This document shows, in pieces, positions 39,760 to 42,948 of a stretch of DNA of 64,000 nt. The DNA is from a phage. How positions within the stretch are numbered: position 1 is the first letter of the stretch; each line of letters begins with the position of its first letter. The position numbers and the translations under genes are program-made. The notes under the pieces were generated by a model. The model was not told where the DNA came from. It saw only the letters and a list, made by a program, of their open reading frames with translations, and did not search any database. The stretch lies in assembly GCA_014685065.1 (NCBI GenBank), contig GCA_014685065.1_4092.1; one strand, 5' to 3'.

Positions 39760-40248
39760 TTATACGGATTCAACGATACGTGCCATCTTTTCCGCTCGTG
39801 AAGTGGTTTGTTTATACCATGTACTATCACGCAATTCTTTACCAGCAGTTTTGTAATCAGCTTTACCTAATGCGGTCATTGCTTTTTTAAATTTCAAAAC
39901 TTTGGTTTTTCCCATTTGGAATACCATTAACCATAATACACGTTGTACCTGTACTGGTGCGGTCATACCGAATTGTTCATAAATTGATTTTGCATCATTG
40001 TACGCAGTTTGAGCATCTTTGAGAAGAAGTTGGTCAGCTTGAGCTTCGGTCAAACCATTCTTGAAATTTTCACCAGGAAGAACTAGATGACCATAACCAA
40101 TAGTATCAAGACCTAAACTGTCTTTATATACCCAAAACTTATCATTTTTAAAATAACCAAGTTTTTTCTGATAAGCAATAGTTCCTTCAAATTCTTTAAT
40201 TTCCTTAAAAAATTGCTCATCTGTATTTTTAATTTCCCATTTACTCAT
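39760..40248 (-). CDS. phage lysozyme (T4 e-like, GH24-type)
   Basis: 162 aa with [13 protein letters not shown] and following helical region typical of T4-type lysozymes; paralogous to the C-terminus of the adjacent hub protein. Confidence 0.7.
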   Translation of the reverse strand: [162 protein letters not shown]

Positions 40249-40284
40249 AAAGATATCCTCGTTTTATTTATAGTGCTAAAATAT

Positions 40285-42948
40285 TTATTGACATGCCTCC
40301 AAACGACGAGCCATTAACTCCGCACGGCGTGTGGTTTGGCGATACCAAGCAGAATTGCGGATTTGTGCCGCTGCTTGTTTATAATTACCTTTTGCCATTT
40401 CTGATAACATAGTTTTAAATTTCAATACACCACCTTTACCCATCTGAAATACCATTTGGCATAGTACTTGTTGAGCAAGATAAGGAGTTTTCATGTTATA
40501 TGAAGCATAAATTGATTTGGCATCATAAATTGCTTTACTACTATCACGAACTAACATATCATTTGCTTGTTGTTCAGTTATTCCATCAGAGAAGTTTTCA
40601 CCGCTAACAATTAAGTGACCGTAACCAATAGTTGGATATCCACGACTATCTAAATAACGCCAGAACTTACCATTACGATAATATCCCTTTGCTTGTTGAT
40701 ATTGTAATGTACCCTCATATTCTTTTAATTCAGAAATAAACTGAGCATCACCTGGAACAACTTTCCAATCTATGGCTGTTTTATCAACATTACCTATATT
40801 ATAAGTTGGTTGCTCAACTGGCGTAGTTGAAACACCACTTCTTTGTGTTCTTCTTCGACGAGGAACATGTCGTGAACCACGTTGTGAATAACCTGTACCA
40901 ATTGTTTTAATTTTTGTAGTAACTACTAATTCATCACTATCAACAGAAGGTTGCACTACTGCTTGAGGTGCAGATTGATTGGTTGCTTTTCCTGCAATTA
41001 ATGTTTTATTGGCTGCGTCAGAACCAGTACCAGTTTGAGATGCATAAAATAGACCCGGATCAACTGAACCGCTAAAACCAAGCACGTTAGCTGATGTAAC
41101 ACGTATTTCAAACTGTATAACACCATTTGCTTTACCAACAACTTGTCCTTTTTGAACAACATCTTTGTTTAATAAATCAGATTGAATATTATAAAATACA
41201 GATTTATATCCTGACTTATGTTGTATTAACAGTGCACCATTAGTAATTACTATTACACCACCATCGGGTGCAACTATGTCACCTTTACATTGTATTTCCC
41301 ATCCAGAACGATCTGACTTCCCACCACTTTGTGTTGGAACACCTTTCCCCCAATAACCATATTGGCGAATAGTACCACTACATGGCATGAACATATGTAA
41401 ACCTTCATATGTAATACTATATCCAGTCATCCCAGGGTCAGATGTCATTAAATCTTGAGATTGCACTTGTTCAGTTTCTGATGTATAGTTTACAAACTGA
41501 ACAGCTTCTGTATCTTGTGCAACTGGTAGTTCTGGCGATACATCGTTTGCTGGCTGTGGTTGAACTGGTGATTCACTTGAGCCACTCCCCCCACCTTGCC
41601 TTGGTGGTTCAACATAACTACCATGATTTTCAGCATTAACCCAAGCGGCAATATCATGAATGTGTTCATTAAGACCAGCAGATGGTGTTCTGAAATTTGG
41701 TGCAGTAAATTCAGCAGTACCGCTATTACCACCACTATTAACTGTTAATGTTTGACCTCCACCACTAACAATTGCTGAAGATGAACCAATTAAGTTTGCA
41801 GATGTAGAAGCAGAAATAGACGCATTTGAACCAGCAGTAATATCAGTACTGCTACCACTTTGCATACGTAATGATGCAGCAGTAACTAAACGAAGGTCTG
41901 CCCCAGAATTAACAACAACTTGTCCACCAACTTTTGCATCAAGAGCACCAATTAGATCTAATTTAGTATTTGCACCAACTCGTGCATTGAAATCTTGTCC
42001 GGTTTCAATATTATATGAACGTCCAGCAGTAATATTAATATCTTGACCAGCACGAATATTAATATTCTTATCACAGTGCATGTCAATATCACCTTCACCA
42101 GTGAATTTTATACGTGCAGTGCCATCACGGTTAATTAAAAGAACATCACCAGTAGCTTCTGATAAAAGAAGTTGTGCACCACTACGTGTTTTTATTACGA
42201 CACCTTCATTTTTACGAGAACCAACACGTGTATCGTTTACTGGGTTATTAAATTGTGTATCTTGATATCCATCTGGGTCTTGATCCCACGTTGGTGCTGT
42301 TAATTCCTCTTCAGTATATCCATCATCAATAATAAAACTATTACCACGTGGCGAAGACATACCATATACAGTACTGGTGGTTTGTCGAGTACTACTACGA
42401 TTCGCCAACCCAGCTTCTTCGTCATATAAAAGGTTTTGCTTTTTAAGACCTGCGATAATTGGAACGTTAGCATATTTGTCTTGCATATCGGTAGTGATAG
42501 TGTTACGATCATAGTCAGTAACAGGAAGTGGCATATCAGTTCCACCATAATTACTTACTTCAGTTGCCATGCCTGGAACCATAGTATTCATACGCTGGTC
42601 ATATACACAACCAATCCAATATGCTTGGAATGTACGGGCTTGTGCAAAAATTACAACAACTGTACACCCTACGTCTGGTGGTACTGCCCAAAAACCGTAT
42701 CCTTTTGGATATTGACCATATGCATCAGCACTTGGAATACCTGGTGTTTTACCAGCAAAAGGAGACATGTAAGATGCTTCTATCCATGATTCTTTTGAGT
42801 TTTTATCACTTTGAGAACCTTGTATCCAAACTTTCAGTTTTCCTGATTTAGTTGGATCTCTGTTATCCATAACAGTTGCTAACTGCGGATAAGATGGGTC
42901 AAAACGACCCAACTGCTGTTGTGCATACTTTTTACTTGTATCTGCCAT
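40285..42948 (-). CDS. baseplate hub/cell-puncturing protein (gp5-like) with C-terminal lysozyme domain
   Basis: 887 aa; N-terminal gp5/gpV-like OB region (GKLKVWIQG...); central degenerate M23-like segment; C-terminal ~160 aa lysozyme domain (GYPTIGYGHL...). Confidence 0.65.
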   Translation of the reverse strand: MADTSKKYAQQQLGRFDPSYPQLATVMDNRDPTKSGKLKVWIQGSQSDKNSKESWIEASYMSPFAGKTPGIPSADAYGQYPKGYGFWAVPPDVGCTVVVIFAQARTFQAYWIGCVYDQRMNTMVPGMATEVSNYGGTDMPLPVTDYDRNTITTDMQDKYANVPIIAGLKKQNLLYDEEAGLANRSSTRQTTSTVYGMSSPRGNSFIIDDGYTEEELTAPTWDQDPDGYQDTQFNNPVNDTRVGSRKNEGVVIKTRSGAQLLLSEATGDVLLINRDGTARIKFTGEGDIDMHCDKNINIRAGQDINITAGRSYNIETGQDFNARVGANTKLDLIGALDAKVGGQVVVNSGADLRLVTAASLRMQSGSSTDITAGSNASISASTSANLIGSSSAIVSGGGQTLTVNSGGNSGTAEFTAPNFRTPSAGLNEHIHDIAAWVNAENHGSYVEPPRQGGGSGSSESPVQPQPANDVSPELPVAQDTEAVQFVNYTSETEQVQSQDLMTSDPGMTGYSITYEGLHMFMPCSGTIRQYGYWGKGVPTQSGGKSDRSGWEIQCKGDIVAPDGGVIVITNGALLIQHKSGYKSVFYNIQSDLLNKDVVQKGQVVGKANGVIQFEIRVTSANVLGFSGSVDPGLFYASQTGTGSDAANKTLIAGKATNQSAPQAVVQPSVDSDELVVTTKIKTIGTGYSQRGSRHVPRRRRTQRSGVSTTPVEQPTYNIGNVDKTAIDWKVVPGDAQFISELKEYEGTLQYQQAKGYYRNGKFWRYLDSRGYPTIGYGHLIVSGENFSDGITEQQANDMLVRDSSKAIYDAKSIYASYNMKTPYLAQQVLCQMVFQMGKGGVLKFKTMLSEMAKGNYKQAAAQIRNSAWYRQTTRRAELMARRLEACQ

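Follow-up and report, generated by a model that had tools for sequence, protein, structure and literature searches.

The 64,000-nucleotide (nt) stretch of phage DNA considered here, referred to as the window (contig GCA_014685065.1_4092.1 of NCBI GenBank assembly GCA_014685065.1), encodes a protein of 887 amino acids (aa) that is the central membrane-piercing spike of the baseplate of a Rak2-like jumbo myovirus. The spike is built, in order, from an oligonucleotide/oligosaccharide-binding (OB) fold, a VgrG-like beta-helix, an HxH motif, a linker, a domain with the M23/LytM peptidase fold, a basic linker and a lysozyme of glycoside hydrolase family 24 (GH24). Judged by its residues, the LytM domain is non-catalytic throughout the family, and it is nonetheless retained by selection. 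A free lysozyme, encoded next to the spike, is a paralog of the terminal domain. The source phage belongs to the genus Asteriusvirus and is of the 121Q/RaK2 type. Over positions 39300-43000 (3.7 kb, covering both genes) its DNA is 98.9% identical to that of Escherichia phage 121Q, and 36 phage records cover at least 80% of this interval at 78% identity or more. Orthologs of the spike are 121Q gene 587 (gp587), RaK2 ORF078/gp457, CBB_240 and phAPEC6 gp241, and the protein matches phrog_13211 end to end at 1814 bits. Those of the free lysozyme are 121Q gene 586, RaK2 ORF073, CBB_239 and LysUE1. Both open reading frames (ORFs) are present on the minus strand where the original prediction, made from the sequence alone, had placed them, and all of the peptide strings quoted in it were found. 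The features of the two genes are as follows.

40285-42948, minus strand: baseplate central spike gene, 887 aa (ORF list)
42601-42882, minus strand: N-terminal OB-fold of gp5/VgrG type, residues 23-116 (Pfam Phage_base_V, 29.8 bits against a cut-off of 23.8)
42199-42600, minus strand: most conserved stretch of the spike, residues 117-250 (dense invariant columns in an 11-genome alignment)
41683-42198, minus strand: triple-stranded beta-helix region, VgrG-like, residues ~251-422 (Pfam DUF2345, 34.9 bits against a cut-off of 30.7)
41614-41682, minus strand: putative Apex (spike-tip) segment SAGLNEHIHDIAAWVNAENHGSY, with the HxH motif H429-I-H431 at 41656-41664 (sequence checked by translation)
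41407-41613, minus strand: linker 1, residues 446-514, with much Gly, Ser, Pro and Gln (poorly conserved and variable in length in alignments)
41029-41406, minus strand: degenerate, predicted non-catalytic LytM/M23-fold domain, residues ~515-640 (Pfam, profiles, AlphaFold2 (AF2) model and Foldseek)
40768-41028, minus strand: linker 2, residues 641-727, with the conserved basic motif IGTGYSQRGSRHVPRRRR (family alignment)
40288-40767, minus strand: C-terminal GH24 (T4-type) lysozyme domain, residues 728-887 (Pfam Phage_lysozyme, PF00959, 44.5 bits)
39760-40248, minus strand: free GH24 lysozyme gene, 162 aa (ORF list)

The middle of the spike had been described as resembling the beta-core of M23 peptidases, and profile search, fold prediction and Foldseek now agree that it has the M23/LytM fold. 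A Pfam scan of the whole spike at E<0.1 gave no M23 match; the isolated segment matched PF01551 (Peptidase_M23) with E 3.4e-4, its 21.2 bits lying under the gathering cut-off of 28.7. The same Pfam family matches 9/9 family members, with a best E of 8.4e-7. When a profile of 14 family members was compared with PDB sequences, SpoIIQ (3.6e-7), LasA (6.9e-7) and DipM (9.4e-7) were recovered, followed by pseudoalterin, Csd1/Csd2, zoocin A and EnvC, and nearly all of the matches were M23/LytM proteins. An AF2 model generated from an 8-row alignment of metagenomic relatives has a predicted local distance difference test (pLDDT) score of 78 and a predicted template modelling score of 0.75, with a core above 88. 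This alignment was required, as the single-sequence prediction of the middle segment reached a pLDDT of only 33. Residues 497-515, the part of linker 1 within the model, score below 50. With this model as the query, the top Foldseek matches in the PDB are the LytM domains of DipM (4e-6) and EnvC (2.9e-5). There are 42 PDB matches at E<=1e-3, all of them M23/LytM proteins except 9k2v, a cyanophage A4 ejectosome protein, and one chain of that entry was also matched by the M23-like family profile in the PDB profile search. In a viral structure library, Foldseek found mainly proteins named M23 peptidases or endopeptidases, and among these are cyanophage and Acinetobacter-phage proteins with M23 domains, one of which is annotated as a "baseplate hub protein". 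Finally, hhalign against MepM, NlpD, lysostaphin and LytM returned a probability of 95.8%. Given the profile, Foldseek and hhalign results, the fold assignment is secure.

The active site, in contrast to the fold, has been lost. The original prediction held that the HxxxD and HxH zinc ligands were missing, and a joint alignment of 14 sequences with active enzymes bears this out and adds the catalytic His to the list. The equivalent of HxxxD is R547-S-G-W-E551, in which R547 stands for the His and E551 for the Asp, and both positions vary among relatives. An earlier candidate for this motif, QCKGD, was rejected, since the profile and MAFFT alignments both place HxxxD at R547-S-G-W-E551. The catalytic His of the YxHL strand is replaced by N587. 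The HxH of the active enzymes has become V610-I-Q612, with deletion of the Gly-rich loop that precedes it, and its second His is replaced variously by Q, R, K, D, E, I, Y or L. All five M23 catalytic and zinc positions are thus replaced in 14/14 relatives, with different replacements in different phages; none of the 14 aligned sequences has a His at any of these positions, and no alternative ligand set is conserved among them. Invariance is seen in eighteen other columns, among them those of the MP..G start, GW.I, the DHG-like His577, FEIR and DPG.F. Together, the invariant columns and the lost catalytic residues indicate that the domain is selected for and yet, as far as its residues tell, cannot be a zinc peptidase of a known kind. 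The reading in which it is still an active endopeptidase that employs unconventional residues draws on the retained fold and core motifs and on the frequency of active M23 domains in phage tail and spike proteins, and is highly improbable given five canonical positions replaced differently among relatives and the lack of conserved alternative ligands.

The middle domain is confined to few proteins. An exhaustive HMMER search of 1.84 billion representative proteins found it in 8 clusters only, of which seven are spike-like proteins (872-984 aa) and the last is a fragment of 84 aa from phage CMSTMSU. A 159-aa record named "hypothetical protein, partial [Morganella morganii]", encoded on a contig of 479 nt, matches part of the spike middle segment with 100% identity and is probably phage DNA within a bacterial assembly.

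The N-terminal half of the spike is that of a contractile-tail spike protein. Between the OB-fold and the beta-helix, residues 117-250 match no family, although they hold dozens of invariant residues (for example YDRN, GLKKQNLLYD, NRSS.RQ and DDG); this stretch may serve to dock the spike onto the hub. A profile of the N-terminal halves matches the beta-helices of VgrG and gp5 in the PDB with E values of 8e-6 to 1e-4, and the helix is predicted to be trimeric. The HxH motif that follows is invariant at both His residues (H429 and H431) in an alignment of 9 diverse N-terminal halves, and is found at the same aligned position in 17/17 family members. Work on the P2 spike has described HxH as the only universally conserved feature of spike proteins, where it marks the Fe-binding Apex (bioRxiv 10.1101/2023.02.25.529910). 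The motif in the window follows the beta-helix and fits this published rule, yet stands far from the C-terminus of the spike. The profile search with the N-terminal half found VgrG and gp5 and no gpV or gp138 Apex. A match of the HxH to VgrG1 4uhv was rejected, as the aligned part is the His-tag of that construct. Sequence and profile searches found no structure of this spike family in the PDB.

Within linker 2 the motif I-G/S-S/T-x-F/Y-x-x-R/S-G is conserved across the spike family. The basic motif IGTGYSQRGSRHVPRRRR lies at 40840-40900 (residues ~683-702), with weaker forms in distant relatives, and could be a processing site or a docking strand. A shorter version of the spike exists in Pseudomonas phage Callisto, of the PA5oct group. 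This 477-aa protein has the N-terminal part in common, with a recognisable counterpart of residues 117-250, and ends after the beta-helix, with no HxH, no LytM domain and no lysozyme. The end of the Callisto protein after the helix supports the view that the LytM domain and the lysozyme are a modular addition.

The terminal domain and the free protein both exceed the Phage_lysozyme cut-off of 22.3 bits, the latter with 37 bits. In the PDB the fused lysozyme matches T4 lysozyme and the gp5 lysozyme with E values of 1e-11 to 1e-8. The equivalents of Glu11, Asp20 and Thr26 of T4 lysozyme are present in both window copies, and the spike domain is accordingly predicted to be a GH24 muramidase with an intact triad. 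The triad is kept in 13/13 free copies examined. In some fused copies of other phages the Thr26 equivalent is replaced, by D in Munch, Kae01 and Hallingskeid, by I in P0006, by S in XaC1 and by V in P0009; set against the Thr found in every free copy, these replacements make it seem that constraint on the spike-borne enzyme is relaxed or altered in some lineages. Activity has been reported for the free form: the ortholog LysUE1 has been purified and is lytic, with its activity improved by EDTA (ethylenediaminetetraacetic acid), and is reported to be 96.3% similar to the 121Q ortholog (2025; PMC12805682). A third lysozyme paralog, RaK2 ORF029 (300 aa, at 3704-4606 of the compared RaK2 locus), is encoded by a gene outside this window. 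Its layout was confirmed as an N-terminal hydrophobic segment or transmembrane (TM) helix, a LysM-like stretch and a C-terminal GH24 domain, and in this last the catalytic Glu and Asp are separated by the insertion also seen in both window copies.

That the two lysozymes arose by a local gene duplication had been proposed at the outset, and the alignment upholds it. In BLASTP, residues 4-161 of the free protein align without gaps to residues 728-885 of the spike, with 52% identity and E 7e-57. Identity to GH24 proteins outside the Rak2-like group is at most 44%, the value for the nearest, the endolysin of Pantoea phage AAS21, whose gene adjoins a holin gene; it is 30-38% for typical phage GH24 proteins and ~30-35% for T4-like enzymes, with ~31-35% for the T4 enzymes themselves. 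At the nucleotide level, the matches between the two window copies are short and recurring, at a constant in-frame offset of 528 nt, and this in-register similarity is the trace expected of an old tandem duplication. The free gene follows the spike gene in 10/10 enterobacterial-group genomes examined, including that of Xanthomonas phage XaC1, and also on three metagenomic contigs. No free copy lies next to the spike in Vibrio phage 2.275.O or on two further contigs (those of P0008 and P0009), and in all three the spike bears both LytM and lysozyme domains.

Fused and free copies are 39-62% identical in every genome examined. Neighbour-joining (NJ) trees unite the enterobacterial group's free copies in a clade, with bootstrap values of 75-78% for 9/10 copies; support falls to 63% in the first tree when XaC1 is added, and further grouping with XaC1 and P0004 in the second tree has only 28-33%. 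In no case do the free and fused copies of one genome come out as sisters. With this level of identity, and with free copies never pairing with their own fused copy, the duplication is ancient rather than recent. The presence of the fused copy without a free copy in three distant lineages suggests the direction, and by parsimony the fused domain was probably the parent of the free gene, rather than a free gene having been fused onto the spike. A single duplication event is not claimed, as the trees leave the deep order of free and fused copies open.

Spike orthologs are components of virions, in which they have been found by mass spectrometry in phAPEC6 (gp241), CBB (CBB_240; PMC5259590) and fENko-Kae01. 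The Kae01 record carries a note of detection by liquid chromatography-tandem mass spectrometry (LC-MS/MS) on the spike and none on the free lysozyme. In CBB, both the gp25-like protein and the spike were confirmed in virions and the free lysozyme was not (PMC5259590).

The two genes lie in a string of baseplate genes that reads, in the order of transcription, a 273-aa ORF, a gp53-like gene, a 749-aa virion protein, the spike, the free lysozyme and a gp25-like gene, after which come a terminator-like hairpin and a gp6-like wedge gene. The gaps that flank the free lysozyme gene are 36 nt to the spike gene and 15 nt to the gp25-like gene. Gene order is kept in all of the related loci compared. 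The neighbouring features are the following.

39349-39744, minus strand: gp25-like baseplate wedge gene, last of the same string (Pfam GPW_gp25, 35.1 bits)
39321-39344, minus strand: terminator-like hairpin with a T-rich tail directly after the gp25-like gene (10-bp stem AAAAGCACTC/GAGTGCTTTT, a pattern match only)
42962-45211, minus strand: 749-aa virion structural protein upstream of the spike, possibly the hub proper (phrog_11190, "virion structural protein")

No Pfam, NCBIfam or PDB sequence match was obtained for the 749-aa protein, which from the position of its gene may play a gp27-like role. A promoter scan performed no better than on shuffled sequence (40 sites against 36.5 expected). 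In comparison with orthologous loci nothing substantive differs. The spikes of 121Q, RaK2, CBB and phAPEC6 are the same protein, equal in length and in the order of domains, and their genes too are followed downstream by those of the free lysozyme and the gp25-like protein; the window is without the downstream HNH gene of 121Q. This endonuclease gene (gene 584, "protein associated with group I intron") lies between the gp6-like and gp25-like genes at 5216-5980 of the compared 121Q locus, where the window has a 101-nt gap with the terminator-like hairpin (39248-39348), and a mobile element is thus found in only one of two near-identical phages.

Other details of the locus vary more widely. The distance from the spike gene to the free lysozyme gene is 12-40 nt in the window and most relatives, unlike RaK2, in which four small hypothetical ORFs, two per strand, separate the two genes (5842-7335 of the compared RaK2 locus). 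In Vibrio phage 2.275.O (4229-7565) and the distant relative L020 (71-3526) the spike gene comes directly after the gp53-like gene, with neither a "virion structural protein" of 700-800 aa nor a free lysozyme at this position. Just downstream of the gp6-like wedge gene, a 3333-aa ORF (25735-35736, minus strand) is the counterpart of 121Q gene 582, annotated "virion structural protein"; in phAPEC6 the orthologous protein, of 382 kDa, was detected in virions. For the ORF at 45537-46358 (minus strand), which begins the string, a TTG start gives 273 aa; the 121Q ortholog is annotated with 243 aa (732 nt), and the true start is probably an internal ATG (MIDRR...).

The spike resembles several other known systems. 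Like T4 gp5, this central spike combines an OB-fold, a beta-helix and a GH24 lysozyme, and in both phages a free paralogous lysozyme is encoded in the genome as well, such that the fused and free pair parallels gp5 and gene e. In gp5, however, the order is OB-fold, lysozyme and beta-helix, with a separate PAAR tip, whereas here it is OB-fold, beta-helix, HxH, LytM and lysozyme. The lysozyme at 728-887 is not inserted between the OB-fold and the helix (251-422) but stands ~300 residues past the helix and the invariant HxH (429-431), in agreement with its earlier description as C-terminal rather than central. The free paralog is adjacent to the spike gene, unlike T4 gene e, which lies outside the baseplate gene cluster. 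With P2 gpV and phi92 gp138 the spike shares an OB-fold, a beta-helix and an invariant HxH ~15 residues before the putative end of the ordered spike. Those proteins end a few residues past the Apex, while the window spike runs on for ~440 residues, and beyond the HxH itself there is no detectable sequence similarity between the Apex segments.

A different parallel is with type VI secretion systems (T6SS), in which "evolved" VgrG proteins carry C-terminal effectors, such as the peptidoglycan hydrolase of Vibrio cholerae VgrG-3. Here too a VgrG-like spike with a homologous beta-helix has a C-terminal cell-wall-degrading extension; it differs in that it lacks a gp27-like N-terminal half, belongs to a phage, and has its GH24 effector preceded by a LytM domain. 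Finally, phi29 gp13 combines a lysozyme-type domain with an active M23 endopeptidase on the tail tip. The pairing of glycan-cleaving and M23-fold domains at a tail tip is the same, although the M23 domain is active in gp13 and appears dead in every member of the window spike family.

The explanation that joins these observations, and one that we regard as probable though well short of certain, is of a spike that carries its LytM and lysozyme domains as cargo beyond the tip, with the LytM domain as a binding module and the free paralog employed for lysis. In this scheme the HxH would mark the tip of the spike, from which ~440 C-terminal residues per chain would hang. The spike would puncture the outer membrane, and on sheath contraction the LytM and lysozyme cargo would be the first to reach the periplasm. 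The tethered GH24 domain would then cut glycan strands locally at the entry point to allow the tube to pass. The dead LytM domain would act as a binding module, most simply for the stem peptides of peptidoglycan, and so keep the lysozyme on the sacculus. The free lysozyme would be a soluble muramidase, made late with the baseplate genes, that probably contributes to lysis at the end of the cycle together with the membrane-anchored LysM-lysozyme paralog, whose gene lies in another part of these genomes.

A number of points weigh against this account. HxH cages occur in fibres as well as in spikes (bioRxiv 10.1101/2023.02.25.529910), and the placement of the cargo beyond the tip is for that reason put forward conditionally. 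The mass-spectrometric data on the spike amount to a whole-protein coverage of 4-10% and do not place the C-terminal part on the mature spike. The free lysozyme gene is itself a member of the baseplate string, and a virion protein of low copy number can go undetected by mass spectrometry. With regard to the history of the pair, deep nodes of the lysozyme trees have bootstraps below 50%, monophyly of all free copies was obtained in 0/100 bootstraps, and the direction and number of duplications rest on parsimony.

The main rival, which we consider unlikely though the best of the alternatives, is that the LytM domain is a regulator like EnvC, NlpD or DipM, with a degenerate groove into which a cell-wall hydrolase would insert a helix. 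One candidate partner is a host periplasmic amidase (AmiA/B/C), which would be activated where the phage enters; the other is the lysozyme of the phage itself, which would be either inhibited up to the moment of firing or stimulated once firing has occurred. Degenerate LytM grooves are known to bind and activate amidases and lytic transglycosylases (PMC10268282, PMC10336132). The domain shares its fold and its degenerate active site with EnvC, NlpD, DipM and SpoIIQ, which are its closest matches in structure and in sequence: DipM and EnvC, through their LytM domains, lead the structural comparison, SpoIIQ and DipM are among the top PDB profile matches, and E. coli NlpD obtains 32.9 bits with the family profile, whereas the active MepM obtains 13.9 and lysostaphin and LytM obtain 5-7. 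Its strong conservation despite the complete loss of catalytic residues points the same way. Nevertheless, the nearness to non-catalytic LytM factors is only suggestive, because the active enzyme LasA scores as well in the PDB search and pseudoalterin and zoocin A almost as well, so that the comparison does not discriminate. The conserved DHG-like His, FEIR and DPG are general M23 core motifs. The context is also different, for the bacterial proteins are periplasmic or forespore regulators with a coiled coil or LysM, whereas here the domain has neither and is embedded in a phage spike, between flexible linkers and beside a lysozyme. The fuller form of this proposal, in which the domain is a viral mimic of LytM factors that, after delivery to the periplasm on the spike tip, docks the regulatory helix of AmiA/B/C or a lytic enzyme and activates it on the spot, or else gates the phage lysozyme in cis, seems to us slightly more doubtful again.

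Just as doubtful is the proposal that the free 162-aa lysozyme is not a lysis enzyme but a virion enzyme associated with the baseplate or spike, or an assembly factor. Its gene lies between the spike and gp25-like genes (gaps of 36 and 15 nt), with the sole terminator-like site after gp25, and these phages have a separate candidate for a membrane-anchored endolysin. On the other side, the LC-MS/MS note of Kae01 is on the spike and not on the free lysozyme, the nearest outside relative adjoins a holin gene, and the free gene is absent from three lineages with otherwise the same spike and baseplate genes.

There is rather less to be said for release of the LytM-lysozyme portion by proteolysis at assembly or firing, for instance at the basic linker, to give a free periplasmic effector in place of a tethered one; we think this improbable. 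Linker 2 does contain a conserved GSRHVPRRRR, the linkers are long and flexible, and T4 gp5 undergoes cleavage during assembly. The spike ortholog of phAPEC6, however, is listed solely at its predicted full-length mass of 95.9 kDa.

Against these alternatives, we return to the tethered lysozyme with a binding LytM module as the favoured reading. The features of the locus themselves have precedents in the literature. The RaK2 genome paper of 2013 (PMC3622015) described ORF078 as an unusually large baseplate lysozyme with a C-terminal lysozyme domain and a beta-helix flanked by unmatched regions, and recognised ORF029, ORF073 and ORF078 as three paralogous lysozymes. The CBB paper of 2017 (PMC5259590) pointed to a candidate M23 domain (pfam01551, E 6.5e-4) at the centre of the spike and of its Rak2-like homologs, and predicted as the endolysin a separate protein with TM, LysM-like and lysozyme parts (CBB_187, 121Q gp532 and RaK2 gp506). 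The C-terminal lysozyme, the paralogs, the central M23 match and lysis by the free enzyme are therefore already published for orthologs. Neither paper mentions a dead M23 domain or its placement beyond the HxH, and a full-text literature search found no paper that links a degenerate LytM domain to a phage tail; the degeneracy across the family and the position beyond the HxH appear to be unreported. New here are the firm assignment of the fold, the loss of catalytic residues across the family, the placement after the invariant HxH, the age of the duplication and the direction that it probably took. These add modestly to what was known, through the firm fold, a non-catalytic M23 domain in every member examined and a timeline for the duplication.

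To our knowledge, the crossing of peptidoglycan by the giant contractile tails of phages is known in detail only for T4. The present phage group would cross the wall differently, as its enzymes seem to be suspended past the spike tip, in the manner in which T6SS spikes carry effectors. Conservation of a dead enzyme module in relatives down to ~30% identity implies that it has a binding or regulatory job. If that job were the control of host autolysins, the wall would be breached by the phage lysozyme together with hijacked host autolysins, and this would represent a new strategy of entry.

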